This document shows, piece by piece, positions 3,258 through 28,923 of a stretch of DNA of 64,000 nucleotides (position 1 is its first letter; the number at the start of each line of letters is the position of its first letter). The notes beneath the pieces are model-generated. The model was not told the DNA's origin, did no database searches, and was given only the letters and a program-made list of their open reading frames with translations. The stretch comes from an uncultured Bacteroides sp. (GTDB lineage: Bacteria > Bacteroidota > Bacteroidia > Bacteroidales > GCA-2748055). The stretch is from NCBI GenBank assembly GCA_964500835.1, contig CAZCQL010000014.1:3029-67028 (forward strand). Direction: 5' to 3'. A program made the translations under genes and the position numbers.

Positions 3258-3329
3258 TCCGAAATCTTCGCATAATATTTGTTTGATTCTTAAAAATATT
3301 TCGATGCGACACTTTAGGAGTGTACACAA

Positions 3330-3659: not shown

Positions 3660-3661
3660 TT

Positions 3662-6666: not shown

Positions 6667-6916
6667 ATTTTAGGAATCTGGGAAATCGATAGCATTGCCT
6701 CAAATTGACAATTTTCGTACCTTGTTTCATGCCAAATTTATACACAAATTCAAATTTTAAAAAGTATAAATCTGAATTTGTAAGCGATACATTACACCAA
6801 AATGTGTAACATTATTCTCATTTTGTGTATTGACCATTTCAATATATATCTCTAATATCGTTTTTGGAAATCAGGTCTCAAACCTAATTCAATCAAACGC
6901 TACAGAAAAAGCAAAG

Positions 6917-9900
6917 ATGCACCTCAAAAGATTTTATAGAGAACTTATAGCGCTTGTTGCAGTTGGATTTATGGGATTGGGAATGGCCTATGCAGCCGGG
7001 ACTATTACTGGACAAGTGGACGATACGGATGGTAATCCACTTGCTTTTGCCAATGTGGTGATCACGCATAAAATTGTTAACGGGCAGGAGGTTGCTTTGC
7101 GTACGCAGATCGGCACTGTCACTGACCTGGATGGAACTTACGCATTGACTGCTGTAGCTGAAGGAACTTATGTATTAGAGGTAATCTACCTGGGGTATAC
7201 CAGCAATAAATCCACCGTCACCATATCAGGAGACGAATTAGTTACCCATAATGCAGTTCTGGAGAACAAAACCCTGGACCTGGAGGAGGTAGTGATCACA
7301 CAGCAGGCCAAGGGCCAGATGGCCGCCATTAACCAGCAGCTCTCAGCCCTTGCCATAAAGAATGTGGTAGCTGCCGACAGGATTCAGAGAAATCCGGATG
7401 CCAATGCAGCTGAGGCTATTGGAAGATTACCGGGTGTCTCTATTACAAGAAGCGGAGGAGAGGCTAACGATGTGATCATCCGCGGGATGTCCTCACAATA
7501 CAATACCGTATTGCTTAATGGGATAGAGATCCCCTCCAACAAAGGTACAAGCCGAAATGCCAGTCTTGGAGGTATTTCCCAGTTCTCTTTGCAGGGAATC
7601 GAGGTGTATAAAGCCATTACGCCTGATATGGATGCCAATACGGTATCGGGGGCTGTGAATATGCAAATGAAATCCGCTCCGGAAGGTTTTCATGGAAGCG
7701 CCATGTTACAGGGCGGTTATAATGATCAGAACAGCGATTTCAGCAATTATAAGTTTAATGCAAACCTGAGTAATCGCTGGTTCGACAACAAATTAGGTGT
7801 GGTCCTAAATGTTTCCAACGAAAGAACCAACCGCAGCACTGAGAGTATGGGTTCCAATTATGCTATTGAAACTGCCGATACTGCGCTCGAGTTTCAACCT
7901 ATGTTCCTGAACACAGTGAGCTTACAGAGCGTGGAAAGAATTAATAAAAGGACCTCGGGGAGCCTGGTCATCGATTACCGCTTTTCTCCAAGATCTAAAA
8001 TAGAATTTTCGAACTTCTACTCATCCAGCCCCACAGATCGGCTGACCATCAGTAAGTCTCATAACCTTTTAGCTCAAAGCGTTGCTTATAATCTTAACCA
8101 GGACCGTGGGGGACACTCCAAGCTTTACAGCGGAACCATAAAGGGGGAACATGTACTGGGAATATTCATGATCGACTACAGCCTGGCTTATTCTCAATCC
8201 GACAAGACCAATGAGGTCAGGCTTTATGGAGTTGCCAATCCAGATGGATATGCTGCAGGAAGCGGAACACAACCCAACAGGTTGTTGCCCTTACCGGAAA
8301 TCATTGACATGGCCCGCGATGAACAGACCCAGGAAAACCTCAGGGAATATGGAATGGGAGGACCGGGAAGCCGGCAGACTGATAGACTGAGCGAAAAACA
8401 GTATGATGCCCGACTTAATATTAAGGTCCCTATCCAAGCTGGAGACTGGCTTACAGGTAATGTGAAATTCGGTGGGATGTACCGCAATAAAGACCGTTTA
8501 CGCGATTTCAATAGATTTGTCTATGGAGGCCCCCCCTTTCACAAGCTGGTTTCCGGGATTCAGACCACGCCCGATGGTATATCCTGGGAAATCCCCTGGG
8601 TGGTTCTGAACAACAGGAATGGGGTATCGATGGAAAATATGGTGGGTGGTAATATGGATAATTTTCTTGGAGGAAGGTATAATTTTGGATGGTTTCCCAA
8701 TATCAATCAGATGAACGAAATCTTTGACTGGTGGCAGGATATTACAGGCTACTATCATCCCATGGGGCGTGATTATGTGAGTGCCCAAGTTCCTGGCTGG
8801 CAGCTTATTTTTGGACAGGAAAGAATGATTGGCTGGCTGGATCCCCGTCCCAGCGTAGCAAATGATAACAATGTACAAGAAAGTCAATATGCGGGATACC
8901 TGATGGCTGAACTAAAATTGGGAAACATGATTTCACTTATCCCGGGTGTTCGGTATGAAAATACAAATTATAATTTGCATGCCTGGTGGCTTGAACGCAG
9001 ACTTGATGAAGCTTTGGAGATTCCAGGATACGAAACCGAAGCCACCCGGCAAAATGATTTCCTTTTGCCCATGGTACATCTGAAGATAAAACCCGTGGAT
9101 TGGCTTCACATTCAGACATCCTACACCCAAACCATCTTCCGCCCCAATTATAACTGGATTGTTCCCTTTGAATATGTGGATAATGCTTTAGGTCCCTACG
9201 AGTATCAAGCAGGTGATCCTGATCTAAAGGTTGAACAATGGGACAACTTCGACCTGATGCTGGCTTTTCACAGCAATAAACTGGGTTTGATATCCCTGAA
9301 CGGCTTCTACAAAACTGTATCAGATAAAATCTGGAGCCGTACATGGACCAGGTTATCAACAGATGACCCGATTCCCCCTTTTGCTGATGATGAGGACGTG
9401 AATGTTACCTCATGGTATAATAACGATTATGATACCTATGTAAGGGGATTCGAGGTGGAGTGGCAGACCAACTTCTGGTATCTTCCAAAACCTCTGAGTT
9501 ATTTTACACTTACTGCCAACTATACTTATATGAATAACACCTCTGTTTATCCGGATTCCAGGGTATCTGTTGTCCAAACGGGTGTTACAGGCTCAGGCAG
9601 ACCCATATATGGGAAGGTCAGAGCTGACACCACATTTACAGGTCCAATGCTTAACCAGCCTACCCACATGGCCAATGTTTCATTGGGATTTAGTATAAAA
9701 ACTTTTGACATCTGGCTCTCCTACCAATACATAGGGGAAACTTTAACCGCTTATGCGATTCAGTTTGAGAATAACAAGTATAAAACCGCCTTCTACAGAG
9801 TTGGTTTGCAGGTCAAATATGAAATTCCCCTCAAAAAGCTCCATGGACTGGAAATATTAGGCAATGTATCTAATCTTAACAACCTGGTTGAAGCGGAGTA

Positions 9901-9979
9901 TTTCAGGGGAGATATAAGACCTGCCAGTTTGCAATCCTATGGATGGACTGCAGATTTTGGAGTACGATATGTATTTTAA
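6917..9979 (+). CDS. TonB-dependent outer-membrane receptor with N-terminal CarboxypepD_reg domain (not SusC/RagA-type)
   Basis: Start taken at MHLKRFYRELIALVAVGFMGLGMAYA (signal). GQVDDTDGNPLAFANVVI is the carboxypeptidase-regulatory-like domain. The plug region reads AEAIGRLPGVSITRSGGEANDVIIRGMSSQYNTVLLNGIEIPS...IEVYKAITPDMDANTVSGAVNM. A long beta-barrel ends in the aromatic terminus FGVRYVF. Confidence 0.9.
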   Translation: MHLKRFYRELIALVAVGFMGLGMAYAAGTITGQVDDTDGNPLAFANVVITHKIVNGQEVALRTQIGTVTDLDGTYALTAVAEGTYVLEVIYLGYTSNKSTVTISGDELVTHNAVLENKTLDLEEVVITQQAKGQMAAINQQLSALAIKNVVAADRIQRNPDANAAEAIGRLPGVSITRSGGEANDVIIRGMSSQYNTVLLNGIEIPSNKGTSRNASLGGISQFSLQGIEVYKAITPDMDANTVSGAVNMQMKSAPEGFHGSAMLQGGYNDQNSDFSNYKFNANLSNRWFDNKLGVVLNVSNERTNRSTESMGSNYAIETADTALEFQPMFLNTVSLQSVERINKRTSGSLVIDYRFSPRSKIEFSNFYSSSPTDRLTISKSHNLLAQSVAYNLNQDRGGHSKLYSGTIKGEHVLGIFMIDYSLAYSQSDKTNEVRLYGVANPDGYAAGSGTQPNRLLPLPEIIDMARDEQTQENLREYGMGGPGSRQTDRLSEKQYDARLNIKVPIQAGDWLTGNVKFGGMYRNKDRLRDFNRFVYGGPPFHKLVSGIQTTPDGISWEIPWVVLNNRNGVSMENMVGGNMDNFLGGRYNFGWFPNINQMNEIFDWWQDITGYYHPMGRDYVSAQVPGWQLIFGQERMIGWLDPRPSVANDNNVQESQYAGYLMAELKLGNMISLIPGVRYENTNYNLHAWWLERRLDEALEIPGYETEATRQNDFLLPMVHLKIKPVDWLHIQTSYTQTIFRPNYNWIVPFEYVDNALGPYEYQAGDPDLKVEQWDNFDLMLAFHSNKLGLISLNGFYKTVSDKIWSRTWTRLSTDDPIPPFADDEDVNVTSWYNNDYDTYVRGFEVEWQTNFWYLPKPLSYFTLTANYTYMNNTSVYPDSRVSVVQTGVTGSGRPIYGKVRADTTFTGPMLNQPTHMANVSLGFSIKTFDIWLSYQYIGETLTAYAIQFENNKYKTAFYRVGLQVKYEIPLKKLHGLEILGNVSNLNNLVEAEYFRGDIRPASLQSYGWTADFGVRYVF

Positions 9980-10086: not shown

Positions 10087-11874
10087 ATGAGAAAAATTAC
10101 TATTCGAACTAGTATTATTGCAATATGCATGTTTATTGGGACTGCGCTTATTGCACAGGACACTGTTACCGTGGCTCAGGGACTTGGTACCCTGGAAGCA
10201 GCTATTGCTGCAGATGGCGGGGATAAGGTCTATAAGCTTACCGCCGGTGCCTGGTACGGGTTGACCTCTATTGTTGAGATTAGTGATTCCACCATGGGCG
10301 ATGGAAACGGGCTGGTCATCATTGGAGAAGAAACTGATGGTCTTCCTGCAACCATTCAGGTTGGTATCGATGGAGAAGGCCTGGCCTTCCCCTTGATGTT
10401 TAGAACATTCAACGATCTGACGATCAAGAATGTATTCCTGGCAGCGCAGGATATTTCAGGAGTTGCAAGCCCCGGTGTTATGGAAGTTGCCGGTATGGCG
10501 AAAATTGTTGTTGACAACTGCGTGATAGATCCTGCCGGTACGGCCCGCACGTTTAACGGTGGTGTACCTGCAAATGGATCCGTGTTTTATCTTACCAACA
10601 ACCTGATCATGAACAACGGTAACGTGAACACACCAAATGATGGGGGATGGCTGGGTGGCATGGCCTGGGATACGCTCTGGGTGGAAAATAATACATTTGT
10701 GTCTTCAGGTCAGGATTTCATAGGAACCCCTTTTCACAATGTACCCAACAACCAGTTTATCTGGATCAATCACAATACCTTCCTGTGGCACGATGTATGG
10801 ATTAAGAAGTCCTACAACGACCAGAATCTGTACTTCACAAACAACCTGATGCAGGACATCAGCATCTTTGCCCAGCTTTATGCATGGGGACAGTTTTTCC
10901 CCGATTACAAGCAGGGAAATACCATGCTCAGCCTGCTCGCCATCGACACTTTGGAGATGGGCGCCGACAGCGCTAACGTCTATGAGACTTTGCCTTCAGA
11001 GAGAAATATGTTCTGGGAGTATAACCTTCAGTGGAATACACCACAATTACTCTCTATTCCTAAGCTCGGGCAAGACAGCGGATTTACTCCCATTTACAAC
11101 ATCCCCATGATGTGGGACGATGATGTACCACTTTCTTATACCGGTGGCGTAGAGGTAGCTTCTCCGGCAGATTCAAGCAGGGAGAACCGGATCCTGGCTG
11201 ACAAAACCAACTGGCCCAATATGAAGTATAACAACAACTGGTACGATGCCCTGGGTGATCCAGGCTGGAATGAACCGATGATTGAGCAGATCAATGACAG
11301 CGTAAAGATGAACCTTACCAGCTGGTGGGGTGCTGTTATCTGGGGCAGTCCTGCATACACCTTTGTAGCACATAATTATAACTACGAAGTGGATAAGTGG
11401 GCCGGAACTCCCGTCGGGGAATACCCTGCAGTATGGCCACGATTTGACGGTACATACTCAAATGCAGCTATGTTGACTGCTTCCATTGAAGGTCTTCCGC
11501 TGGGTGACCTGAACTGGTATCCTGCTGAGAAAGCAAGGTGGATGGCTGAGAAAGGTATGATTGAAGACCATATTATGGCTCTGAATGAGGACAAATACGA
11601 ACTGGGACCTGGTGTTGGGATTCAGGATGTATCCAGTTCAGCTGCATTCTCCATCTATCCAAATCCTGCTAACGATGTACTAAACATTGCAAGCGACGCT
11701 GAATTGAATGTCGCCAAGGTGTTTGATGTAGCAGGGAAATTGGTGAAGGTAGTTCACATTGGTGGTGCATTTAGCAATGCCATGGATATTTCTGACCTGA
11801 ACAATGGAGTTTATATCCTGGAACTTGAAACAGTTACTGGTGAAACTAATACTTCAAAGATTCTGAAGAACTAG
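10087..11874 (+). CDS. T9SS-exported right-handed beta-helix protein (candidate polysaccharide lyase/hydrolase or binding protein)
   Basis: Signal peptide, repeated Asn-ladder-like turns (NNLIMNNGN, VENNTFV, INHNTF, FTNNLM), and a C-terminal Por/T9SS sorting domain (FSIYPNPANDVLNI...LNNGVYILELET...KILKN). Confidence 0.8.
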   Translation: MRKITIRTSIIAICMFIGTALIAQDTVTVAQGLGTLEAAIAADGGDKVYKLTAGAWYGLTSIVEISDSTMGDGNGLVIIGEETDGLPATIQVGIDGEGLAFPLMFRTFNDLTIKNVFLAAQDISGVASPGVMEVAGMAKIVVDNCVIDPAGTARTFNGGVPANGSVFYLTNNLIMNNGNVNTPNDGGWLGGMAWDTLWVENNTFVSSGQDFIGTPFHNVPNNQFIWINHNTFLWHDVWIKKSYNDQNLYFTNNLMQDISIFAQLYAWGQFFPDYKQGNTMLSLLAIDTLEMGADSANVYETLPSERNMFWEYNLQWNTPQLLSIPKLGQDSGFTPIYNIPMMWDDDVPLSYTGGVEVASPADSSRENRILADKTNWPNMKYNNNWYDALGDPGWNEPMIEQINDSVKMNLTSWWGAVIWGSPAYTFVAHNYNYEVDKWAGTPVGEYPAVWPRFDGTYSNAAMLTASIEGLPLGDLNWYPAEKARWMAEKGMIEDHIMALNEDKYELGPGVGIQDVSSSAAFSIYPNPANDVLNIASDAELNVAKVFDVAGKLVKVVHIGGAFSNAMDISDLNNGVYILELETVTGETNTSKILKN

Positions 11875-16064: not shown

Positions 16065-17537
16065 TTAGTCAGTTTTACACTTTGGACTTTGCACTTTACC
16101 CTCCCCTTTATAAAAGCTCCAATAATTTATGTTGTTTTTTTCAATTTCAAAACCCCATTTCTCGATATAAAAATCCTTTGGCTTAATCGTTTCCTCACCT
16201 ATTTCACTTAACTCCTGGCCCAATTGTCGCTCAAGATCTGCCTGGATATCTGTATATGCCGGATTCCCGGCCAGGTTATCCATCTGGTATGGATCCTCCT
16301 GGTCATCAAACAGCATGAAAGGTCCTTCCGGCGATACTGCATAGGTAAACCTTGCGGTCCGGATCCCCCTGTATTCACGATCATCCCAATTTACATCAAA
16401 GGGAGAGACATTCATCACCAGTGCAGCCCGATCGGCCTCAGGATCAGGATTCAACATTAATTTGGAAAGGTCATCTCCTTCTATGGTGTTGGGAATTTCA
16501 ATGCCACAAAGGGATAGCAGGGAAGGAAGAATATCGGGCGTGGTCAAAGGGGCCTTAACCCTGACTCCCTGATGGGACTCACCATCTGGTAGCCTGATTA
16601 GAAAAGGAACGTGTACAGATTCATTCCAGGCCAGTTGTTTTCTGTATGGCAATCTGCCATGGGAACCCATCATCTCTCCATGGTCGGCGGTGAAAACCAG
16701 GATGCTATTCTCCAATAAACCCAGGGATCTCATCTGCTCTACCATGGATCCAATGGCCAGATCGGTTGCGGTGCAATGTGCATAGTACCCCTGAATCTCG
16801 GGCAGGACTCTCTCATATAATTCTTCGGGTACATTGGGAGAGAACTTGATCTCAGAGGGTGGATACATCTCCATATACTCCTCCGGAGCCGAATTATAGG
16901 GAAAATGGGGTGTTGCAATGGAAATAAATAGCAGGAAGGGCTGCTGATCATCAGTGTGATCATTCATATAGGTCGTGGCCTCTTTGGAGATGGCAAAGGG
17001 AGAGTATCCGTCCCATGTTTTCTGTTCCGGATCCTCATTTTCATAGTAAAGCATATGGTTGTAGTCGTGGGAGCACTCGAGGGCCTTCCAGTATTCAAAT
17101 CCCTGCCGGCGTTCCGGCTCCACATTATTCAACCTTCCATGTCCGTCCAGGTGCCACTTTCCAATATAGGCTGTCTGGTAACCGGCTGATTGAAAGATTT
17201 CAGCCATACACAGCTCCTCAGCCGGCAGGTAGATGTCGTTCAGAATCATTCCGGTGGAAGATGGAAACCGGCCGGTTAACAACGATGCCCTGTATGGAGT
17301 ACAAACAGGTGATACACTTACCGCATTCACAAAATTTACAGCCTGATCAGCAAGTTGATCAAGCTGGGGTGTTTTTACATTGGGATTACCCATATACCCC
17401 AGAGCTGATGCTCTCCACTGGTCTGTAAGGATAAAAACAACATTTGGTTTATCTGGAGCTTTACAGCCCGAAAGAAGGAATAGGGCCAGAGCAGAACAAA
17501 GCAACAGATTTCTTCTCATTTTTGTTAAGTATTTCAT
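16065..17537 (-). CDS. S1-family sulfatase, lipoprotein
   Basis: Lipobox LLSGC, NVVFILTDQ, and active-site C-T-P-Y-R-A-S-L-L-T-G-R. Confidence 0.93.
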   Translation of the reverse strand: MKYLTKMRRNLLLCSALALFLLSGCKAPDKPNVVFILTDQWRASALGYMGNPNVKTPQLDQLADQAVNFVNAVSVSPVCTPYRASLLTGRFPSSTGMILNDIYLPAEELCMAEIFQSAGYQTAYIGKWHLDGHGRLNNVEPERRQGFEYWKALECSHDYNHMLYYENEDPEQKTWDGYSPFAISKEATTYMNDHTDDQQPFLLFISIATPHFPYNSAPEEYMEMYPPSEIKFSPNVPEELYERVLPEIQGYYAHCTATDLAIGSMVEQMRSLGLLENSILVFTADHGEMMGSHGRLPYRKQLAWNESVHVPFLIRLPDGESHQGVRVKAPLTTPDILPSLLSLCGIEIPNTIEGDDLSKLMLNPDPEADRAALVMNVSPFDVNWDDREYRGIRTARFTYAVSPEGPFMLFDDQEDPYQMDNLAGNPAYTDIQADLERQLGQELSEIGEETIKPKDFYIEKWGFEIEKNNINYWSFYKGEGKVQSPKCKTD

Positions 17538-17656: not shown

Positions 17657-20632
17657 TTAGTCCCAACTCAGAGAGAGCCTAGCACCTCCGGCATGGTCAG
17701 TCATATCAATCCGGATCATATCTTTTGACTTTTTAAATTTGAACTTATCGCCTCTTGCATCAGTCAGTAAAAGTTTCTTTGAAGCCATCTCCTTGGTGAT
17801 GGGGATGCTCACTTTGGACTCTCCCTGTACAAATATCTGAATCTCTTTCAGATCTTTTTTCTCATCTTTATTCAGGCTAGACTGTGCCGAAATACCATCT
17901 TCGATATACTTGTTGATAATAGTCTGCGATGGGGCAAATGCAATTTTTTTCAATGGTGTGTCTGAGAAGTTGTAGACCTTCCCATCCATTTTTAGCTGGC
18001 GACAGTTTTCACCTTCAAAGGCGATTAACTCATTCTGATCATTCATCCTGAATGCCATGGTGAGGGTACCCTCAAAGCTTACCTCGTGGCCATTTAGCTT
18101 GAAGTTCTCCAGGGAGATCTCATCTGAAGGGAGCGGATTGGCCTCTAGTGCCGCTGCGTCGTCTTCCTCGTTCCGTGAGAAGCCTCCCGCCCAGGTCTCC
18201 CGGTGGCTGTTGTAATGTCTGACCAGCACTGTGGCTCCATTGGGAAAGCGTGTGGCCAGGTAGTTTGATGTGCGGGAAACATGTTCGGTATTGTCGTTTG
18301 CACCAGGAAAGGAACCGGTTGGTGGGTAGGCTCCCACGTGGTCCAGGATCTCAAAAAGTGTGCGTGTTTCATATCCAAGGCTACCCGATTGATCATCACG
18401 GGGTCGGAAACCGAAAAAATAGGCATTTCCTTTTCCCGTACCCACCAGAAGATTGTTGTCACAATAGGCCAGATTGGAGGTACTCTCCCCGGCTTCCACC
18501 GGGTATATCCTGTCCACCAAAAAATCACTCAGAATATATTGGGGTGGGATGTCTGTCATCTCATTGGTGAAATCGATCCGCATTCCGACAGCAATCCTGC
18601 CCTGTGGTTCCGGTGAAATGTATTTCACTCCAAACAGCGTTTCCCACTTGTTAAGACAATTTTCACCAGCGGCATTAATAATGGGTGGAGGGCCAAACCA
18701 AAGAGCATTTCCCCCTTTATTCGTAAGCTCTCCCATCATATCCAGCAAACCCTTATTTGGTAAGGGTTCAAACAAGGAAACCAGAGTGGTATACCTTTTA
18801 TCTTTAATCAGAATCTCTCCCATCTCATTGATGGTGGCCAACTCAAGCAATTTCTCTGCGGAGATAAAATTGCAATAGCCATACTGAGTCACCCAGCTTC
18901 CAAAACGTTCATCAACCGCCACCAGGTTCATGGGATAGAGTACCAGTACATCCACGTCCCTATGCACATGACCCTGGATCAGGTCAATGGTTCGGGAGCG
19001 GGGGGAACCTCCATAGGCATCATTGACGGCAGCTTTTCGCCGGGCTACCTTCCGAGGCATCCCCCAGAAAGCCGGGTAGGCATTTGGAATCCGGTTGAGT
19101 ACTCCCAGTGAAGTGGACATGGCGGCTCCATAGTAGTTCCGGTCGTTCCATCCAAGCTCTGCAAAGTCATTTCGGGTGGGTTCCAGGTATTCGCCCCATT
19201 TGAAGTAGTCGTAGCAGGCGGCGGCAGCTTGCTGCACGGTGTTCCCCCAAACAAAGTTAGGAGTATACTCATACTTATAGGCATGGCGGTCCAGATTCTC
19301 CAGGTTCCACATATCCACGGTAGGGCTCTCGGCCCAGGAGGAGTGTCCATGGGTTCCCCAGTCCTCCACACCAAAGAGCTCAGAAGCATATTCCTTTGCA
19401 TTCTTGAAGAGATCTACAATATATTCATTGAGCATGTAGTAATAGTTGTCCCTGAAGAGAAAAGATTTCTGGATTTCTTCTCGAGATTCTCCTCTCACAT
19501 ACTGAACATGCCGGGTGGCCATCACCGAATTGGAGTTGATATCGGGCCCACAGGCGAAATAGAGCAGATCTTTCTCTTCAAAAGGCACTCCAAAGCGCTC
19601 CTGGTAATAATTGCCCATGGAGGGGGTATAATACCTGACCGCCAGCTGACCATTGTCGTGGTGGCCGAAATAGACCCAGTCCTGCTGAAGGTGCATCTCA
19701 TCGGAATAGAAATGCTGAAGGTCAATCCCCTTATCTTTATATTTCTTCAATAATTGTTCCAGGAAGGGTTTTGCTTCCTGACTGAAATACTCCATCTCCG
19801 GGACATCGTATTCCAGCAGGACCATCACCCGGTCGTACCCTTCAAGTTCATCAGAACCCTTTGAAAAAACCTCTATGCGCCTGGCGCGATCCACATTTTG
19901 TCCCGAACCGGAAGTAGCGCTCCAGAGATCGGTGTCCATATCGGTATCGTCTACCGGAACGGGTATCTCCCACTGGGTATAATCTATATTGTTAAGCTCA
20001 ATGATATCCTTGCGGTCGACCGCCTTGAAAGAGCTGTTGGGCAGGTGGTTCTCCTTGAAAGCATAGGCTTTTACCCCTTTAAGTTTGATGGAAAATTTCC
20101 CTTTGTTATTGGTCCAGTACAGCTGCTGCCATAGCTTCACATGAAATTTCCCCGATTGAGGGTCGCGGAACCCTATTTTATAATGGACCCACTGCCCCGA
20201 TTCACCGGTCTGTTTTTTAAATGCAGGGCCCAATTCCAGGGGACTCAACAGGCTCAGTCCCATACCCATATCGTACCGGGCTGCAAACTCGGCAATGATC
20301 TTGATCTTATCCACATATTCGTCACTGTCTGGAGTCAACAGTCTTTCGGTACCTGACTGCTCCCTGTATTGCCTGAAAAACTCATCAAATGCGATGGTAA
20401 GGGTATGGTCACCCTGCTTCTGAGCGGATTCGCATATCTCCCTCAGACTGCCATACTGCTTATTAAACCCGGTTGATAAATCAATTTTCTTGTCCGGATC
20501 AAGCAGGTCGTTTAACTGCTGATCACTGGTGAGAATGATGGTGGCGGAATGTCCTGAAAACACTTGAAAAACCAGAAAGATCATCATAGGAACCCTCAGG
20601 TAAATAGCAACTCTTTTGGTCATGTTGAACAA
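17657..20632 (-). CDS. Large secreted protein of unrecognised family (991 aa); candidate novel carbohydrate-active enzyme
   Basis: Signal peptide (MMIFLVFQVFSGHSA). No motif of any family I know. It has a degraded paralog at 15..2270. It is flanked by a sulfatase and a GH106-like gene on the same strand. Confidence 0.85.
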   Translation of the reverse strand: MFNMTKRVAIYLRVPMMIFLVFQVFSGHSATIILTSDQQLNDLLDPDKKIDLSTGFNKQYGSLREICESAQKQGDHTLTIAFDEFFRQYREQSGTERLLTPDSDEYVDKIKIIAEFAARYDMGMGLSLLSPLELGPAFKKQTGESGQWVHYKIGFRDPQSGKFHVKLWQQLYWTNNKGKFSIKLKGVKAYAFKENHLPNSSFKAVDRKDIIELNNIDYTQWEIPVPVDDTDMDTDLWSATSGSGQNVDRARRIEVFSKGSDELEGYDRVMVLLEYDVPEMEYFSQEAKPFLEQLLKKYKDKGIDLQHFYSDEMHLQQDWVYFGHHDNGQLAVRYYTPSMGNYYQERFGVPFEEKDLLYFACGPDINSNSVMATRHVQYVRGESREEIQKSFLFRDNYYYMLNEYIVDLFKNAKEYASELFGVEDWGTHGHSSWAESPTVDMWNLENLDRHAYKYEYTPNFVWGNTVQQAAAACYDYFKWGEYLEPTRNDFAELGWNDRNYYGAAMSTSLGVLNRIPNAYPAFWGMPRKVARRKAAVNDAYGGSPRSRTIDLIQGHVHRDVDVLVLYPMNLVAVDERFGSWVTQYGYCNFISAEKLLELATINEMGEILIKDKRYTTLVSLFEPLPNKGLLDMMGELTNKGGNALWFGPPPIINAAGENCLNKWETLFGVKYISPEPQGRIAVGMRIDFTNEMTDIPPQYILSDFLVDRIYPVEAGESTSNLAYCDNNLLVGTGKGNAYFFGFRPRDDQSGSLGYETRTLFEILDHVGAYPPTGSFPGANDNTEHVSRTSNYLATRFPNGATVLVRHYNSHRETWAGGFSRNEEDDAAALEANPLPSDEISLENFKLNGHEVSFEGTLTMAFRMNDQNELIAFEGENCRQLKMDGKVYNFSDTPLKKIAFAPSQTIINKYIEDGISAQSSLNKDEKKDLKEIQIFVQGESKVSIPITKEMASKKLLLTDARGDKFKFKKSKDMIRIDMTDHAGGARLSLSWD

Positions 20633-20775: not shown

Positions 20776-23631
20776 TCATTTCACATTTTGAGTTTCATGC
20801 ATAAAACTGACCGGCCCTTCTATTCCACAGGGTACCTTTTCTCTATAACTGGTCCATCTCCTGGCCACCGGATCATTCAAATCTATGCAATAGTTGGCGA
20901 GTACAGTGGTGTATATAATTTCCAGATTGTTTTTGCCCTCTTTCAGGTAGGGCTCAATGTAAAACAGGGCATCCCCATACCAATTTATACCGGCTTCTTC
21001 TCCGTTAACCATCACTTGTGTGACCCCCCTGTGTGTCTCTCTAATGTTCAGGTGGGTAATGTTCCCGGAATTTTTAAATGTGGTAGAATAGATGAGTTTC
21101 CCCGCAAATGAGTTCTGGTCAGAATCGGAAGATTTAGATAAGTCAATAAGCCCGGAAAGTTCCCACTGAAAATGGTTCCCATTCATATGTTCAGCCTTAA
21201 CAGTCCAGGATTGATCCAAATGACCCATTGCATACAACTTATTCTCAGACGGCAATGCATCTGCTTCTCTGGCTCCTGTCTCAAATACCAGCAGCAGCGA
21301 CCTAAGAGGTGGAAGGTCAATGTGGAGGTCCTTTTGCTCCTGTCCAACAGGATACCTCCATCTCTCACCGGTCTCAGGATCCCAAATACAGGCATTTCCA
21401 TTCGCCATAGGAAAACTGGCATCTATCTCGGCAGAATCTTTTCTGTGGACATTGGTAAAGAAAAATATGTCTTTGTCCCTGGCGGTTTGAAAGATCTGGT
21501 AAACATCGGGATCAGGGTTTGCAATCTCCACATCAGGCCTGATGGGAAGCTTTCTCAGCAATTCCCAGGTCCATTCATTGAGTGTAGAATGGTTTTTAGG
21601 AGCCACGGTCAAAAACACCTGGTCGGGATAATCTGCAATCAATTCAAGGAAGACCTGCGAGACCAGACTGTCATTGCTGTCAGCATCTTCCATATGTGCC
21701 GATCGCTCTGGTTTCCGGTCCACGATGAGAAGTGAACCCCCATTTTTGATAAATTCCGCAATCTTTATTGCAGTTTCAGGAGCCATGGACCTGACATCTG
21801 CAAGGATTAATGTTTTGTAGCTCATCGGTCCATAATCAATTCTACCGGAATCCACTGTGGAGTTCTGAAGTACCTTCTCATTGAGGTACTCCGATGAGTA
21901 GCCTGCCTGACTGATGGGTTGCCAAATGAGATGCAGGTACCAGGGTTCTGTATGAAAGGGTTGCCTGATTAAACCGACTTCGGACCATAGATCGGCTGTG
22001 GGGCCAAGGATGGCAATGGATTTCCTTGGCCGTGAATTTTGAAAAATATACGACAACCTGGCATTGTAATCCACCCAATGATGGAGGAAAGGCCACCAGG
22101 GATTTTGTTCACTGAAGTAAGTTCCGTACCTGACCCAGCCTGGAAATCCGGCCACCGGCGGTGAATAATTAAACCCATGAAGCACGGAATGGTTGATCCC
22201 AGTAATAAAATTCATGTCATCGTGTTGTTTGATCTCTTCGAGGGAGGCTTTAAATACTCCCCCGGTATTGGTCATGGCTTCACAACTGATTATCTTCCTG
22301 CCAGTGAGATGTCCCCCGGCAGCTGCGTACATATTCCATATCATGTATCCATGATCCTGGTTCCATACCCAGGTGGGAGCATCCATATCTGCTGAGTAGA
22401 TCCAGTTGTTGCTCTCCGGTATATCGGGTATCATATATCCCTCCAGCATGCCCATTAAAAAAGGTGTCCCGTAGGCCTGGTAACGACATTGCAATCCTTC
22501 TGAGGTACAGAATTCCTGAAAAACCTTCGTGAAATTTTTCAGAAAAACATCCACCAGCATCCGGTTAAAATCAAACCTGGCTCTTTTAACTCTGTCAACA
22601 AATTCAGCCGACTGATTGAATAATTCCAGGGTTGCGGTTTCGGTAGAAAATACAAAGGGCATATAGGGTTCAAGTGCATATCCATACCTCTCCTTGAAAT
22701 TATCCGAAAATCCATCTGACCAGTTCGATCCTGCCAGTTCGATGCTATCACAAAAGAGGGCCCTGATTAAGTCCGATAAAGGAATCCCCGTTTGTTCGGA
22801 GATGGTCTTCAGCCTTGAAAGGTAAGCAAGGGTCACCTCCTTCTTGTAGTGATCCATCACGGGTCCGGCTGCTCCCGGCGATCCATGCATGACTGTTCTA
22901 TGCCCCTTTTGAATAACTCCAAAACTAAGGATATAGGATTCTCCTGGATCAAGTGCCACATTCACGCTTCCATGCTTCTCCAAGTCAGTCATCAAATCGA
23001 ACATTTTCTCCTCCCCATCCAGGGGAATGCTCAAAAGGGAAGCGTAAAGCAATTTTGGAGGATACTTGTCTTTAAATCTGAAATGATTCCCACCGCTGCT
23101 CAAATCATGATTCAGTCTTTCAATGAGACCTTCAACTGATTCAGAAAGATGATCGCTTTCATGGATGTCGAACTGGTGGGGTATCACTATTTGAATGATT
23201 TCATCATCTTTCAGGAATTCTCCACCGAATGGCCAGCCAGAACCTACAATCAGGTCGGCAATCATATCCAATTCCCCAGCCTTGCTGCAGGCGTACACCA
23301 GTAAGTCAATCCACTTTTCACTCATCCAGATCAACGACTCCGCCCCTATCTCCTTTGAATCGGGAGGAAATGCAATGGGATTTATTTCAACCCCGCCAAA
23401 TCCTGCCTTCTTCAGAAGTTCAAGTTCACGGGTTATCTCCTGGCTCTCAATTTTGTTCCCGTTCCACCACCAACGAACAAAAGGTCTGGCCTCAGCCGGT
23501 GGATTCTTAAATCCCTCATATAAGTGATTGGAGTCGGGTGCTCCACTTTGACCTGTGCACCCTGCAAGGCAGGTCAGTATTAATATCATGATCCCATATC
23601 CGGACAGATAAATAGATACTCTTTTTTTCAT
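20776..23631 (-). CDS. GH106-like glycoside hydrolase (PF17132-type, probable alpha-L-rhamnosidase), lipoprotein
   Basis: Start taken at MKKRVSIYLSGYGIMILILTCLAGC (lipobox; ATG at 23631). The N-terminal block is FKNPPAEARPFVRWWWNGNKIESQEITRELELLKKAGFGGVEINPI. The C-terminus is a GH2-sugar-binding-like domain (VMVNGEEAGINWYGDALFYIEPYLKEGKNNLEI). Confidence 0.8.
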   Translation of the reverse strand: MKKRVSIYLSGYGIMILILTCLAGCTGQSGAPDSNHLYEGFKNPPAEARPFVRWWWNGNKIESQEITRELELLKKAGFGGVEINPIAFPPDSKEIGAESLIWMSEKWIDLLVYACSKAGELDMIADLIVGSGWPFGGEFLKDDEIIQIVIPHQFDIHESDHLSESVEGLIERLNHDLSSGGNHFRFKDKYPPKLLYASLLSIPLDGEEKMFDLMTDLEKHGSVNVALDPGESYILSFGVIQKGHRTVMHGSPGAAGPVMDHYKKEVTLAYLSRLKTISEQTGIPLSDLIRALFCDSIELAGSNWSDGFSDNFKERYGYALEPYMPFVFSTETATLELFNQSAEFVDRVKRARFDFNRMLVDVFLKNFTKVFQEFCTSEGLQCRYQAYGTPFLMGMLEGYMIPDIPESNNWIYSADMDAPTWVWNQDHGYMIWNMYAAAGGHLTGRKIISCEAMTNTGGVFKASLEEIKQHDDMNFITGINHSVLHGFNYSPPVAGFPGWVRYGTYFSEQNPWWPFLHHWVDYNARLSYIFQNSRPRKSIAILGPTADLWSEVGLIRQPFHTEPWYLHLIWQPISQAGYSSEYLNEKVLQNSTVDSGRIDYGPMSYKTLILADVRSMAPETAIKIAEFIKNGGSLLIVDRKPERSAHMEDADSNDSLVSQVFLELIADYPDQVFLTVAPKNHSTLNEWTWELLRKLPIRPDVEIANPDPDVYQIFQTARDKDIFFFTNVHRKDSAEIDASFPMANGNACIWDPETGERWRYPVGQEQKDLHIDLPPLRSLLLVFETGAREADALPSENKLYAMGHLDQSWTVKAEHMNGNHFQWELSGLIDLSKSSDSDQNSFAGKLIYSTTFKNSGNITHLNIRETHRGVTQVMVNGEEAGINWYGDALFYIEPYLKEGKNNLEIIYTTVLANYCIDLNDPVARRWTSYREKVPCGIEGPVSFMHETQNVK

Positions 23632-24117
23632 AGTTGGATTATTAATGTTTTTCTCAACTGTGTCAATCATTGTCAGGATATTAAGGACTCTCTCTTTAGA
23701 TTTCATTTTTTCAATCCTGATTGTGAATTGCAATTATTGGCTTAAAATATAAAAGAGCGTAGATATTGGCTAGTACAATGTAATCCTTTTGCTTATGAAA
23801 ATCAGATAAAGCAGTCCTTTTACATCTTACAATTCAGGTTTTACACTTTTTGAGCCTGATATAGCCGTCTCTATGTTGCATATTTGAGATACATTTGAAC
23901 TGTGCTCGCTAACCCCGTAGTAGAACTTCGGGGAACCGAGTTTACGAGCTCGGCAAAGCCAATGCGCGAGCGGGATTCAACAATGGATTCGTCACAACGC
24001 CCTTCTGCTTGTGTTCCAGAGCCTGTTTACTCACGGGTAAAATGACCAGAAATGAGGGACGCTAAGATTGCAGACACAATTAGAGTCCTCATTATCGGGC
24101 CTTTCAAGTCAGACCCT

Positions 24118-25995
24118 TCAAAACAGTGGCCAGTCCCTGATATAGTATCCATCACGGGTGGTGAGTTCCATATTCCTGATCTCAATGATTCCCTCTCCTG
24201 CCGAAGGCTGTAAACTAATTGTTTCTAACCTGCCCACTAGCGGCATCTCAATGCTGTACTGATGCCAGTGCCCATCATGATTTGTTTCAATAATCGATAC
24301 GTTCATATTTTCAACCGGTACAAACCCCTTGTCCATATATTTCTTGTAGTCGATATCATTCTGATCCTTCCAGAAGAGTCTGCCCTCCCCGGAACTGGTG
24401 GATTTCATCTCAAATGTAAACAGGAAAGTGTCATCAAAGACATTGGGGGTAAACACCGTTTCAACACTGGGTGCATTCCCGGTGGATTCTATTCTGAGTA
24501 CTTTATCTGAGACTGAGATTCGCGTATCGTCTGATCCATGCCAGGCTTCAGCCACATTTCCTTCATAATTCTGATTCAACTGTGGCAATAGAATTCCTGC
24601 CTCTTCTGCATGTTTATCAAGTTGAGTAAGCATCTCCCTCACTCTTTCAGGCTCCTCATCAACCAGGTTATTGGTCTCACCAATATCCACATCCAGGTTA
24701 TAAAGTTCATACCGGTGTTCCCGGTCCGGACCATCAAAGAAGAACTTATAGAAACGCCATGGACCATACCTCATGGCGATATTTGGTCGCCCTCCTGTAG
24801 CTGGTGTATAGTGGCAAAAGGTGGAATAAATGGGTTTACGAACATACTCCTTCTTCTTAAGGGCCGGGATATAGCTGACACCGTCCGTCAAGAAATCCTG
24901 ATCCAGGGGAATTCCAAGAAGTTCAAGCAGTGAGGAATAGTGATCCACTGTGGACACCACCACCTTAGATTTGCTCCCTGCCTTTGTTAAACCCGGTACC
25001 CTGACAATAAGAGGTACGCGGGTCCCGCCTTCATAATTGATACCTTTTCCGGCCCTCAGCGGATAGTTATTTGTGGGGGTAGTACCATCCGGTCCATCAT
25101 ACATGTTTCCCCCATTGTCTGAAGTGAAAATAATAATGGTCTCCTTATCGAGTCCCAAGGCTTTTACTTTATCTATTACCCTTCCAAAATTGGTGTCCAT
25201 ATTTCCAATCATGGCACCCATTGTGGGGCATCTTTGCTTATTTTCAGGAGTGATTTTCTCAGCATAGTATTCCTTCAAATCTTCCTTACCCTGAAACGGG
25301 GCATGCACATCATAGAACCAGAGGCAAAGCAGGAATGGATTGTCTTTGTTCTTTTCAATAAAATCAACTGCCAAATCGGTAACCACATCGCAAAGATGAG
25401 TACCTTCGGGAACCACAGGTAAGGTATTGCAATCCCAGGGGGCAAAGTAATGACCAGGTGGAGGCGGGCCAGGATGTTCCCTGCCACCAACAACGACATC
25501 AAAACCTTGATTTTCTGGTATATAAGGTTCTCGTCCCAGGTGCCATTTTCCCATAAAAGCTGTGGCATACCCCTCCTCTTTCAATACTTCTGCAAAGGTG
25601 ACATAGTCATTAGGCAGGCGTGTTCGGGACTGTGGTGTACCTGCTTTGTACCAGGGTGGTGCAATATCAGATTCTTCTGGATCGAGCACCACTTTTGCCA
25701 CATGCCCTGAAGGGGTGGTAAACCGCAATCTGCCGGGCTCCTGCCCGGTGAGAATACTTGCTCTGGTGGGAGAACAGAGGGGGCTGGCTGAATAAGCATC
25801 TGTGAAACGCATGCCCGAGGATGCAAAGTCATCGATGTTGGGGGTTTCATAAAGGTCAGATCCATAGCAGCCCAGGTCCTTCCAACCCAGATCGTCGGCA
25901 AGAACAAAGATTACATTCGGTTGCTCCGGAATCTTCTCACAGCCAAAAAGTGCAAGCAGGAGAAATCCGGTTAACGACAGAATTAGATTTTTCAT
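24118..25995 (-). CDS. S1-family sulfatase with ~150-aa C-terminal extra domain, lipoprotein
   Basis: Lipobox ALFGC, NVIFVLADDLG, and active-site C-S-P-T-R-A-S-I-L-T-G-Q. An additional C-terminal module follows the sulfatase fold (from ~aa 478). Confidence 0.93.
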   Translation of the reverse strand: MKNLILSLTGFLLLALFGCEKIPEQPNVIFVLADDLGWKDLGCYGSDLYETPNIDDFASSGMRFTDAYSASPLCSPTRASILTGQEPGRLRFTTPSGHVAKVVLDPEESDIAPPWYKAGTPQSRTRLPNDYVTFAEVLKEEGYATAFMGKWHLGREPYIPENQGFDVVVGGREHPGPPPPGHYFAPWDCNTLPVVPEGTHLCDVVTDLAVDFIEKNKDNPFLLCLWFYDVHAPFQGKEDLKEYYAEKITPENKQRCPTMGAMIGNMDTNFGRVIDKVKALGLDKETIIIFTSDNGGNMYDGPDGTTPTNNYPLRAGKGINYEGGTRVPLIVRVPGLTKAGSKSKVVVSTVDHYSSLLELLGIPLDQDFLTDGVSYIPALKKKEYVRKPIYSTFCHYTPATGGRPNIAMRYGPWRFYKFFFDGPDREHRYELYNLDVDIGETNNLVDEEPERVREMLTQLDKHAEEAGILLPQLNQNYEGNVAEAWHGSDDTRISVSDKVLRIESTGNAPSVETVFTPNVFDDTFLFTFEMKSTSSGEGRLFWKDQNDIDYKKYMDKGFVPVENMNVSIIETNHDGHWHQYSIEMPLVGRLETISLQPSAGEGIIEIRNMELTTRDGYYIRDWPLF

Positions 25996-26055: not shown

Positions 26056-28923
26056 TCATTTTAACTCTTTGTTCACCTTGTCCTGTAAAGAGGGAAGATT
26101 TCCTTTATGAATGTAGACCTTACCCCGGGTATGGTATCTTTTCCGAAGAGCAAATGTGACAGGTTCCAGGGCCATGCCGATGGCTACACCCGGATCAAGC
26201 AGAATTTCCTCAGACCGGGGCCAGGCCATACAGAGAAACTCCCCTCCCTCTTTTGACTCCACTGCAATAGCTCCCCTGCCGCTGATATCCAAGGTCGACC
26301 CCTCCTCGAAGCTTTTCCAACCCTTTGAAGTAAGGAGCCAGGTCCGCTCTCCTTCAGGATCCGAAAAGGGCGTTCCCTCCACATACATCAGAAACTCAGG
26401 GGGGGTGTGCAAAATGCCCTCTCCTTTATTTTGCCACCAGTACTCCAGATCCAGGTCGTCCTGATTGGGACTGATCCGGCCGCCCCGCAACCAGTCTCCC
26501 TCATTGGATTCGAACCAAAGAGAGTTTCCTTCACTCCGATTCCAATTGGCCTTTTTTGTTACATGTGACTCAACTTTAGCTGATGTACTGGGAAAACTCA
26601 GTCCAAGTTCAATCGATTGATCTTTTTTTATTAATGTTACAGAAGCAGGAATGCGCTTCCCTTCCCTTTCAACCAATTCTATCTGTTCCACCTCTTTGAG
26701 GGCTTTTCCCACACTCACTTTAAGTGTCTGCTCCGTCCCATCGCTATATACCAGGAATACCGCTCCAAAAGTCCCTCCTTCTTCACTGAATACCTGATAG
26801 CCATCAAGTTCACTATTCCTGGCATGAGATAGCAAGCTCCACCTGCTCCCCTCCTTTTTCCAGATCCGGGGATATTGCCATTCGGTCAGTCCTGTGATCA
26901 CCACCGGCAATAGATTCTTCCCTCCCTGGAGGGTAAATTTGGCTTGGTTTCTATGGGCCCCGATCTTCACAGGCAGATTCAACAATATAGTTCCTTTTTT
27001 GCAGGAAGTAATTTTCGGAGCATCAATGCCATATTGTTCTGCTTCACGCCTTGGGGTTTCCGAACCATCTCTGGTCCCATACGGCAACCAAAACCCGTTA
27101 ATTTCGAAAAAATCTCCAGGATTTAATACCATTTTGTTCTGGTCCGGAACCAGCAGCAGCCGGGTATCATCTTCCCTGTCCATGGCAAACCGGCCTTTGT
27201 AGGCTCCGGTTTGCAACGATGCTGCAGGACCAATACCATGAGGTCCTTTAAAACTGCGAATCACTATGGCATTGGAACCTCGCTCCTTTACACTATCCCC
27301 AAACACCGCCAGAAATGCATTTTCCGAAGGAAGCTTTCGCCCCTTGACGGGAAAGGGGGATTTTGTAAAGTCTATCTCCATGTCTTCGGTGCCAGTGGTT
27401 GCAAATCCGGTGAATTTCAGGTTCTGGATTCTCGAGGTGATGGTCAGAAACCTGAAATTAGCCCCTGCATCCTCTATTGTGATGGGTCTCAATACCTCAT
27501 AGGTTACATGGAAGAAGCTTCTCAGTTCATCCACCTGCGGGGTCTCCCAGATATCGGCTGCAATTCTGATGCTGCTGTCTGCACTGAGGTAGTTTATCTG
27601 TATATCATACCAGTTAGGACCGGTACTGCGGTAGAGTGTACTTTCGTATTTGGAGTGTTGCCAGACCTCTCCATCGTAAAAGCTTAAAAAACTATGTCCG
27701 GCTAGGTTGTCATGCTGGGGCTGACCGGTCCAGAAGGATTCCTGCCCCATGGCGCGGAAATCGGCGATGGCCACCCCTCCTATACCGGCATATTTAAATG
27801 GAACATAACAGGTGGTTTCAGTCACCCCGGTGGATGAATGAAAATAGTCCATCCAGGCTCCCAGCGAAGACCAGTGTTTGGTCATGTGCCTGCCCCAGTT
27901 CTGATAAAGGTGCAGGGAGGTCAGGCTGACCTGCTCTCCGGGTTCCAGGTAGAGCGGAAAAAAGGTTTCACTAAATGCAGTATCGTCGGGATTGTAAAAC
28001 TTCTCCTCCTTTTCACCTCCAAAATTTTTTGACACCTGAACCAATACCGGCATCGGATGGCCCTCTTTATCGAGTAAAGCCCCTCCCTCCACAATGGCTC
28101 CTCCCTCTACAGAAGTATGACCAATGTATATCTTCCTGGGTTCATCATCGTTAGTCAGGCTGAATTCAGCAGTCTCGTAGCGATTGGGAAACTCATAGAA
28201 TTGCTTCTGGAAACTACTGGAAGTAACTGTTCCGATTTCATAGTAGCCTTTTCTGTAATTGTAATGCAAGGGCACCTTTCCCATTGTAGTTGTAAAGAAC
28301 TGATTGGGCAGGGGATCTTCTTCCCCGAAGAGCGGAAAGGTGAAATTCTGCTTTGTGCCTTCCGCAAAGGGGAAGCAATCAAAGCTCTGGGGAGCAATTC
28401 CCCGCACATGCACCTTGCTGGCCTTGAAATTCCCGGTAGCATGCCAGGTAATCTCGGCCAGCATTTTTTCCGGATAGCAATAGAGGGTCAGGTCTCCGCT
28501 TAAAGGGGCCACCTCCCCCCCTTCCGATGTGGGATGCATATCAAACCAGTGTACCTCGCAAAAGTAGGGCCCCCTTCTATAGAGGTTTATCCTCGTGGTA
28601 TCGGCCGAAAGCTTTGTCGAGTACAGGATTCCCTGATCATCCTCCAGCTCCATCCACAACCAGGGCCTGTTCTGATCGTCCGCCAGAAGGTGCGGTTTTT
28701 CAAGCTGACCGGTAACCAGGTATTCTTCTGCCAGAATCTGAAAGGCATGTCGGGATGCATCTGCATATTTTACCTCAAGACCTGGTCTGGACGAAACAGG
28801 TTGGTGATTGAAGTCCTCTGTCCACTGATCTGAAGCGACCTTTCCACATTGATTCAGGGATGCTGCAGTAAGAAGTATAAAGATGGTAGTAACAAATAAC
28901 CTTTGTGATTTGAGGTAATTCAT
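26056..28923 (-). CDS. Large secreted lipoprotein-like protein of unrecognised family (955 aa)
   Basis: Leader MNYLKSQRLFVTTIFILLTAASLNQC. Long uninterrupted ORF sandwiched between two sulfatase genes on the same strand. No recognisable catalytic motif. Confidence 0.85.
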   Translation of the reverse strand: MNYLKSQRLFVTTIFILLTAASLNQCGKVASDQWTEDFNHQPVSSRPGLEVKYADASRHAFQILAEEYLVTGQLEKPHLLADDQNRPWLWMELEDDQGILYSTKLSADTTRINLYRRGPYFCEVHWFDMHPTSEGGEVAPLSGDLTLYCYPEKMLAEITWHATGNFKASKVHVRGIAPQSFDCFPFAEGTKQNFTFPLFGEEDPLPNQFFTTTMGKVPLHYNYRKGYYEIGTVTSSSFQKQFYEFPNRYETAEFSLTNDDEPRKIYIGHTSVEGGAIVEGGALLDKEGHPMPVLVQVSKNFGGEKEEKFYNPDDTAFSETFFPLYLEPGEQVSLTSLHLYQNWGRHMTKHWSSLGAWMDYFHSSTGVTETTCYVPFKYAGIGGVAIADFRAMGQESFWTGQPQHDNLAGHSFLSFYDGEVWQHSKYESTLYRSTGPNWYDIQINYLSADSSIRIAADIWETPQVDELRSFFHVTYEVLRPITIEDAGANFRFLTITSRIQNLKFTGFATTGTEDMEIDFTKSPFPVKGRKLPSENAFLAVFGDSVKERGSNAIVIRSFKGPHGIGPAASLQTGAYKGRFAMDREDDTRLLLVPDQNKMVLNPGDFFEINGFWLPYGTRDGSETPRREAEQYGIDAPKITSCKKGTILLNLPVKIGAHRNQAKFTLQGGKNLLPVVITGLTEWQYPRIWKKEGSRWSLLSHARNSELDGYQVFSEEGGTFGAVFLVYSDGTEQTLKVSVGKALKEVEQIELVEREGKRIPASVTLIKKDQSIELGLSFPSTSAKVESHVTKKANWNRSEGNSLWFESNEGDWLRGGRISPNQDDLDLEYWWQNKGEGILHTPPEFLMYVEGTPFSDPEGERTWLLTSKGWKSFEEGSTLDISGRGAIAVESKEGGEFLCMAWPRSEEILLDPGVAIGMALEPVTFALRKRYHTRGKVYIHKGNLPSLQDKVNKELK

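Follow-up and report, generated by a model that had tools for sequence, protein, structure and literature searches.

What does a secreted protein of almost a thousand residues do between a sulfatase and a rhamnosidase-like gene when standard family models fail to recognise it? The question is raised by a 64,000-nt stretch of contig CAZCQL010000014.1 from an uncultured Bacteroides sp. (assembly GCA_964500835.1; the whole stretch is called the window below), in which the gene studied here, the target, lies on the minus strand at 17657–20623. Profile and model comparisons suggest that the target belongs to an unannotated family of glycoside hydrolases (GH) very distantly homologous to the GH106 alpha-L-rhamnosidases. 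The reading that we favour, with modest confidence, is that it is a periplasmic, metal-dependent GH106-like glycosidase acting on rhamnose-containing oligosaccharides, sulfated ones in this marine cluster.

The open reading frame (ORF) spans 17657–20632 on the minus strand and encodes 991 amino acids (aa) when counted from a TTG at 20632, three residues more than from the ATG start. The ATG at 20623, three codons into the ORF, opens a protein of 988 aa (MTKRVAIYL...) and is the likely start, because the N-termini of homologs and a 988-aa gene call on the source contig (JGI 3300002231, 65 kb) agree on it; the same N-terminal start was found in 48 close homologs. The initial annotation had described a secreted 991-aa protein with three conserved blocks shared with a decayed paralog. 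Secretion is supported by the predicted signal peptide, the length becomes 988 aa with the likely start, and the three blocks were located at aa 306–316, 426–439 and 461–503, all of them recurring in the paralog at 15–2243. The signal peptide has no lipobox cysteine and the mature protein begins at a conserved TIILTSDQQ strand; cleavage would be of the signal-peptidase-I type. The features of the gene and its product are:

17657–20623, minus strand: coding sequence of the 988-aa protein (ATG 20623–20621, stop 17657–17659)
20543–20623, minus strand: signal peptide, aa 1–27, MTKRVAIYLRVPMMIFLVFQVFSGHSA, in the same arrangement in all 48 close homologs
18968–20542, minus strand: predicted catalytic (beta/alpha)8-type domain, aa 28–552 (models, fold search)
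19802–20197, minus strand: beta-rich insertion within the barrel, aa 143–274 (model secondary structure)
19676–19708, minus strand: YSDEMHLQQDW motif, aa 306–316, carrying the invariant D308 and E309
19307–19348, minus strand: GHSSWAESPTVDMW motif, aa 426–439, carrying H427, P434 and D437
19115–19243, minus strand: NTVQQAAAACYDYFKWGEYLEPTRNDFAELGWNDRNYYGAAMS block (NTVQQ...GAAMS), aa 461–503, carrying E478, D486 and E489
18224–18967, minus strand: central alpha/beta domain, aa 553–800, resembling the GH42 'trimerisation' domain
17660–18136, minus strand: C-terminal beta-sandwich region, aa 830–988 (model)

Models of the full-length protein and of its N-terminal part showed alternating strands and helices with the beta-rich insertion, followed by the alpha/beta domain and the beta-sandwiches. 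The insertion lies between the third barrel strand and an E276-x-D278 motif, and alignment coordinates suggest that GH106 appears to carry a long insertion at the equivalent place. The central domain contains DVDVLVLYPMNLVA, RFGSWVTQYGY and WFGPPP. A lineage-specific insertion, QTIINKYIEDGISAQSSLNKDEKKD, at aa ~899–923 (17858–17932, minus strand) is not present in the paralog and was modelled with very low confidence.

Searches against standard resources returned almost nothing. Pfam matched neither the target nor, with the threshold relaxed to E ≤ 10, any of the 49 aligned family members, NCBIfam gave no match for the target protein, and PDB sequence searches, run with the target itself and also with a profile, yielded chance matches only (e.g., TBX5). 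One target-family member had a weak Pfam match to the second domain of a GH35 glucosaminidase. The family itself is large: 1300 homologs were detected at E ≤ 1e-3 among 90% clusters, all named hypothetical, and the 440 representatives recovered among 50% clusters (1.84 billion proteins) all belong to it. A total of 457 loci were found in 185,579 species genomes. Hosts are mainly Bacteroidota (marine Cyclobacteriaceae and Flavobacteriaceae, Prolixibacteraceae, gut Parabacteroides, rumen Prevotella, and Tannerella), with further members in Ignavibacteria, Melioribacter, Calditrichia and KSB1. Conservation of the family is far beyond chance.

Structural comparison pointed to GH106. An AlphaFold2 model of the full-length protein, built from the 49-sequence alignment, reached a predicted local distance difference test (pLDDT) score of 77.7 and a predicted template modelling (pTM) score of 0.80. 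Its best PDB match by Foldseek was the GH106 rhamnosidase RHA-P (6Q2F, E = 2e-13), so the protein is no orphan; BT_0986, also GH106, was matched at E = 2.5e-8, and structures of GH42, GH35 and GH164 at ~1e-8 (dozens at E 1e-9 to 1e-6). A second model, covering aa 25–560 alone (pLDDT 79.7), had only three PDB matches at E ≤ 1e-3, all of them GH106 (6Q2F, 2.2e-5; 5MQM, 2.8e-5; 5MWK, 6.3e-5), whereas GH42 was reached at E 0.07–0.27. The GH42-type signal was lost once the central alpha/beta domain was removed; this domain is present in GH106 too and therefore does not discriminate between the two families. A GH42-like central module (DVDVLVLYPMNLVA...WFGPPP) had been tentatively proposed in the initial annotation, and both the ~1e-8 matches of the full-length model to GH42 and GH35 and the strongest part of the GH106 profile match, described below, agree with it.

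Profile–profile comparison gave the same answer. We aligned 35 GH106 sequences encoded by genes adjoining target-family members in the fetched loci and compared them by hhalign with a diverse family alignment (A3). The two matched with a probability of 97.5% (E = 8.6e-12, score 112), target aa 274–652 being paired with GH106 positions 405–758, whereas the controls (GH78, sulfatase, two other neighbour families, and reversed and column-shuffled GH106) gave P-values of at least 0.02 and scores of at most 29. The largest share of the score came from the central alpha/beta domain. The barrel half on its own (aa 255–552) scored 37.5 against GH106 (P = 1.7e-4), with ten shuffles at or below 21.5. 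In an independent comparison, against 35 full-length GH106 of the Ram106B type, the family matched over the same region with a probability of 93% (E = 3.1e-7), an Asp-Glu pair falling on Asp-Glu. An alignment of five GH106 sequences detected the alpha/beta domain alone (E = 1.9e-4, then 1.3e-6) and was too weak, so the 35-sequence alignment was needed. With an alignment whose first row was limited to aa 25–560, hhalign gave no GH106 match (P = 0.09). A forced near-global hhalign run (low mact) produced an unreliable barrel alignment and was discarded.

On these profile alignments and models, the target family is homologous to GH106. The GH106 Pfam model PF17132 recognises the window's two GH106 genes and almost every protein of the Ram106B type. 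The initial annotation had matched the protein to no family of the CAZy database: this holds for the Pfam, NCBIfam and PDB sequence searches, and it does not hold for hhalign, where a confident profile match to a characterised family came up against clean controls. We therefore call the family GH106-like, a candidate for a new GH family or for a very deep GH106 branch, and do not call it a GH106 member.

By alignment, the likeness may extend to the predicted active site. In BT_0986 of Bacteroides thetaiotaomicron (5MQM/5MWK), E461 is the catalytic acid, E593 the base, and D458, S459, E538 and E561 are Ca2+ ligands (PMC6828813). The Ram106B-type GH106 of Thermotoga maritima (Tm_Ram106B), Caldicellulosiruptor bescii and Thermoclostridium stercorarium, together with 'GH106_dist' of Niabella aurantiaca, have Asp-Glu for Asp-Ser, His for E538 and Asp for E561 (PMC6828813). 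These enzymes have no aligned catalytic acid; they are metal-dependent exo-rhamnosidases active on para-nitrophenyl rhamnoside (PMC6828813). We took BT_0986 numbering from a phmmer alignment of the window's canonical GH106 to 5MQM and counted conservation among 25 diverse target-family members. The initial annotation had proposed mapping the conserved Asp and Glu residues, and the following correspondences emerged:

E276-x-D278: aligns with the Glu-x-Asp of GYEIDK in BT_0986; E276 in 24/25, position 278 Asp in 23 and Glu in two
D308-E309: aligns with the Ca2+ ligands D458-S459 of BT_0986 and with the Asp-Glu of Ram106B; invariant (25/25 each; 49/49)
H427: near E538 of BT_0986; 23/25
D437: aligns with E561 of BT_0986; 22/25
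E478: one residue off E593 of BT_0986; Glu in 13 and Asp in 8 of 25

The mapping of D308-E309 is backed by the barrel-only alignment as well, and the other mappings, which come from longer alignments, are less certain. In an earlier alignment by eye, E309 had been matched to E461 and E432 to E593 of BT_0986; the profile alignments did not support this, and the pairing of D308-E309 with D458-S459 took its place. GH106 has no counterpart of D486 (23/25), E489 (23/25) and D494, three positions that hardly vary in the family.

The classical GH106 enzymes, BT_0986 and RHA-P of Novosphingobium sp. PP1Y, are the best structural neighbours of the target; they appear to have the same domain order, and they have the same genomic company. 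Shared with them are the Glu-x-Asp motif, the Asp at the D458 position, a helix RY.TP....Y...FG matching WTD..F...YGY, and the alpha/beta-domain motif Y..LV.....P..L..M..L...GG. The target family differs from them in having Glu for S459, Asp for E561 and probably His for E538, a 15-residue insertion after the Asp-Glu pair and the extra D486, E489 and D494, and it does not match PF17132 at any threshold tried. The pattern of Asp-Glu plus Asp, probably with His, is by alignment the one published for the Ram106B branch (PMC6828813), with which the family also shares an insertion between the Asp-Glu pair and the YT...F..RFG helix. The motifs FTDEPQF...PYTD.F...F..RFG, TGH.MAE and PGVD, found for Ram106B in blocks of the supplement (PMC6828813), have their target counterparts in YSDEMHL...RYYTP.M...Y..RFG and GHSSWAESPTVD. 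H427, P434 and D437 align without gaps against MPHYEYMQxPGxD of the Ram106B type, so that His, Pro and Asp are paired. In other respects the family departs from the Ram106B type: its profile match is weaker than that to classical GH106 (E = 3.1e-7 versus 8.6e-12), it lacks ~23 residues that separate the TGH.MAED and PGVD motifs there, and the N-terminus has no PFWSWN-type start. Because the labels of the supplement alignment (PMC6828813) are scrambled in places, only blocks with agreeing labels and numbering were used; the Ram106B fragments taken from it gave no significant single-sequence match.

Predicted location varies across the family. Close Bacteroidota members have a signal peptide with neither a lipobox nor a type IX secretion system (T9SS) domain, and the target was accordingly rejected as a lipoprotein or a T9SS substrate, whereas two other proteins of the cluster do carry a T9SS sorting domain. 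Divergent members have no signal peptide and adjoin ATP-binding cassette (ABC) sugar permeases. Such a pattern is typical of oligosaccharide-processing enzymes; read from sequence, it fits periplasmic or cytoplasmic trimming of imported oligosaccharides and not a surface depolymerase.

Genomic neighbourhoods were compared over 39 genome loci with flanks of at least 8 kb each (full-flank loci), partners being counted within 10 kb. GH106 was present in 26 of them and GH78 in 25, with one or both in 32 (82%). Sulfatases occurred in 12 (31%), including every full-flank locus of the close marine clade. Clusters of marine genomes include sulfatases, RhaM or RhaT, while contexts in freshwater and sediment Bacteroidota consist of GH78, GH106, the target and a short GH78, without sulfatases. 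The short GH78 (565–588 aa; six-hairpin and C-terminal domains only) recurs beside target homologs elsewhere (loci L001, 6698–8452; L002, 15806–17572; L003, 12971–14668; L006, 19897–21633); the GH78 genes of the window are all full-length.

Two further uncharacterised families accompany the target family. The first, of 600–700 aa, is represented in the window by a 696-aa ORF (59836–61926, plus strand) and was found in 13 of the 39 full-flank loci; of 80 genome loci, 26 have a member no more than 10 kb from the target homolog, often directly adjoining it (L001, 12880–15024; L002, 7690–9777). The 696-aa protein has no Pfam match, and its sole lead is a weak PDB sequence match to the GH99 endo-alpha-mannosidase 4ACY (E = 0.015, aa 384–429); the family may be a functional partner of the target family. 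The second is represented by a 451-aa ORF (62555–63910, plus strand) with homologs in 5 of 80 loci and no Pfam or PDB match. In Parabacteroides goldsteinii (L057, 12757–13998) its homolog overlaps with the target homolog at the latter's stop codon, a SusC/SusD pair comes next, and there is no GH106 or GH78 gene nearby. PDB sequence searches with five other unassigned proteins of the window gave nothing solid.

Within the window, the genes flanking the target and its paralog are:

16065–17537, minus strand: sulfatase, downstream neighbour (PF00884, E = 4.6e-57)
20776–23733, minus strand: divergent GH106, upstream neighbour (PF17132, E = 4.9e-65)
15–2243, minus strand: decayed paralog, 57% identical over target aa 180–988 (tblastn)

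The array continues, in the order already given by the initial annotation, from the sulfatase (16065–17537), the target and the GH106-like gene (20776–23733) to a sulfatase (24118–25995), a gene for a 955-aa protein (26056–28923) and another sulfatase (29197–30510). Three GH78 genes, a second, canonical GH106 (39813–43061) and a SusC-like transporter lie elsewhere in the window, as do genes for an HpcH-type aldolase, an enolase-superfamily dehydratase and an Amidohydro_2 protein, which we take to be candidate L-rhamnose catabolic genes. The wider window is a rhamnose cluster. The 955-aa protein (minus strand) has no Pfam, NCBIfam or PDB sequence match and its homologs occur in 6 of 80 target-family loci; it was considered as a relative of the target and rejected for want of sequence similarity. 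Of six sulfatase-family ORFs, the sixth is a truncated fragment: the 232-aa ORF at 55267–55965 (minus strand) matches only positions 1–154 of the 301 of the sulfatase model, overlaps by 14 bases the start of a 743-aa gene with DUF5060 and apiosidase-like domains (53049–55280, minus strand), and is probably a sulfatase remnant. The SusC-like TonB-dependent transporter (6830–9979, plus strand) is followed by a 595-aa protein (10087–11874, plus strand) that is not a Pfam-recognisable SusD and whose sole match is to the T9SS C-terminal sorting domain. Another T9SS protein of the window, encoded at 31815–34322, carries Big_2 domains. These secreted proteins are better candidates than the target for the first extracellular cut of the polymer.

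The paralog is a pseudogene. Its Smith–Waterman alignment begins at target aa 176, the first 175 residues being missing, and no remnant of residues 1–175 was found upstream of it; codon 14 is an in-frame stop, and a 47-aa in-frame deletion (aa 569–615) takes out the family-invariant RFGSW.TQYGY motif. In related genomes of marine Bacteroidota the family is represented by two intact paralogs, with ~80% and ~65% identity to the target (L009 and L017 on CAVQMZ010000015.1, ~21 kb apart; also L007/L016 and L008/L019). These two match the target and the decayed copy, so the pseudogene is the remnant of an old paralog and not a recent duplicate. Upstream of it, the ORFs at positions 2244–4100 are all short and seem to be fragments of larger genes, and one resembles the propeller repeats typical of hybrid two-component sensors; they and the pseudogene suggest a decayed or rearranged edge of the cluster.

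Taken as a GH106-like glycosidase, the target would work as follows. It would be exported by means of its cleaved, non-lipoprotein signal peptide, and would have the GH106 layout of a (beta/alpha)8-type catalytic domain split by a beta-rich insertion, a GH42-like alpha/beta domain and C-terminal beta-sandwiches. From the aligned residues we infer a variant of the metal-dependent inverting site of GH106, of the Ram106B kind, in which D308-E309 would replace the Asp-Ser Ca2+ ligands of BT_0986, D437 would replace E561 and H427 would probably replace E538. The catalytic base would be E478, or else the family-specific D486 or E489. Most likely, the enzyme would be exo-acting and would remove alpha-L-rhamnose or a closely related 6-deoxyhexose from imported oligosaccharides. 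Beside the GH106, GH78 and sulfatases of the cluster, it would take on a linkage or substitution pattern that those enzymes leave. A sulfated, rhamnose-rich substrate is plausible for the marine clade, in which every full-flank locus has sulfatases, and the substrates in this window are probably sulfated. The initial annotation had put the protein forward as a prime candidate for an enzyme acting on sulfated rhamnan: it stands as a good candidate enzyme in a rhamnosidase and sulfatase array, and the substrate is too narrow for the family as a whole, since GH106 or GH78 accompany it in 82% of full-flank loci and sulfatases in 31%, and its hosts include gut, rumen, Ignavibacteria and Calditrichia members.

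Several results weigh against this reading. The structural match to GH106 is remote and rests on E-values: Foldseek TM-scores are only 0.25–0.30 (6Q2F, 0.30; BT_0986, 0.25), with a large root-mean-square deviation, and the worst-modelled parts (aa 433–462 and 482–498, pLDDT <50) are the most conserved loops. The hhalign comparisons gave no significant match between GH106 sequences and the N-terminal half of the barrel. The catalytic acid E461 of BT_0986 has no aligned counterpart in the target. In all three profile alignments the GH106 base (E593) falls opposite Y479, one residue off E478, which is itself Glu or Asp in 21/25 members, and the nearly invariant E432 is Gln in two. Since PF17132 matches none of the 49 members, the family is outside GH106 as currently modelled by that profile. 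Co-location with two other rhamnosidase families could point to action on a different sugar of the same glycan.

A stronger form of the same idea is that the target founds a new GH family within the GH106 fold group with a specificity outside GH106 and GH78, for example for taking off L-rhamnose that is sulfated or otherwise substituted, or for cutting a rhamnose linkage at which the other exo-enzymes stop. We regard this as a real, though less than even, prospect.

The enzyme might instead be a GH106-like glycosidase for a different residue of the same glycans, such as a sulfated or methylated 6-deoxyhexose, L-fucose or another sugar, which would explain its coexistence with GH106 and GH78. 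The near-constant company of canonical rhamnosidases argues for a non-redundant job, the near-invariant E432, D486 and E489 set the family apart from the active sites of classical and Ram106B-type GH106, and the two uncharacterised families travel with it. However, rhamnosidase-rich clusters often hold several enzymes that serve different rhamnose linkages, direct evidence for another sugar was not found, and every characterised GH106 mentioned in PMC6828813 is an alpha-L-rhamnosidase. We consider this alternative rather unlikely.

Nor is it likely that the target represents a new enzyme class for sulfated rhamnan, an endo-rhamnanase or depolymerising lyase unrelated to known CAZy families. 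Such a class would account for the blindness of standard family models, for the position of the gene between sulfatases in a rhamnosidase-rich cluster and for the near-invariant D486 and E489 without a GH106 counterpart, and no enzyme depolymerising rhamnan sulfate was found in the literature. Homology to GH106 argues against it. Surface and secreted depolymerases of Bacteroidota usually carry a lipobox or a T9SS domain, whereas the target has neither, and distant members are predicted to be cytoplasmic, beside ABC permeases. Moreover, sulfatases are absent from 69% of full-flank loci, and members of the family are found in bacteria of the gut and the rumen.

Another alternative makes the target a retaining glycosidase of clan GH-A, of the GH42, GH35 or GH164 type (e.g., beta-galactosidase-like), its GH106 likeness being a matter of shared architecture only. 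In GH42 beta-galactosidases (e.g., 3TTS, 5DFA, 4UOQ) and GH35 exo-beta-glucosaminidases, too, a flavodoxin-like alpha/beta domain comes after the barrel. The dozens of GH42, GH35 and GH164 matches of the full-length model have TM-scores of 0.28–0.35, somewhat above those for GH106, and the weak Pfam match to GH35 of one member points in the same direction. This changes when the catalytic domain is taken alone, for it has no significant match to GH42 (E 0.07–0.27, versus ~2e-5 for GH106). The profiles show no sequence match to GH42 or GH35, and their match to GH106 extends across the barrel's second half and takes in the metal-ligand motif. Clan GH-A is defined by an Asn-Glu acid/base motif after strand 4 and a nucleophile Glu after strand 7; the target family conserves no catalytic motif of the clan, and no conserved Asn-Glu occurs at the end of its fourth strand, where E271 varies. 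We judge this alternative improbable.

That the target is a non-catalytic binding or scaffold protein keeping a glycosidase fold is very improbable: the missing counterpart of the GH106 catalytic acid and the lack of strict invariance at E432 and E478 speak for it, but carboxylates and a His are strictly conserved at GH106 metal- and substrate-site positions across members 22–40% identical, the gene sits within operon-like enzyme arrays, and the copy that lost conserved motifs is a visible pseudogene.

The preferred reading of a GH106-like glycosidase bears on a substrate class that bacteria find hard to degrade, the rhamnose-rich sulfated polysaccharides of green algae and diatoms; no enzymology of rhamnan sulfate was found in the literature, nor was a rhamnanase, a new rhamnosidase family or a characterised target-family member. 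The target family, present in at least 457 of 185,579 species genomes, adjoins rhamnosidases in bacteria from the sea, freshwater, the gut and the rumen, and all its copies carry the annotation 'hypothetical'. Far from being an orphan, it forms a deep branch, so far unannotated, of a known kind of enzyme. Placement as a relative of GH106 turns an unassigned protein into a testable enzyme; it would add a new CAZy family or a deep GH106 branch and would improve the annotation of polysaccharide utilisation loci, although not by a new catalytic principle. If the family does have a new specificity, it would fill a gap in the degradation of rhamnose-rich glycans, rhamnan sulfate and the ulvan type among them, in habitats ranging from the sea to the gut.

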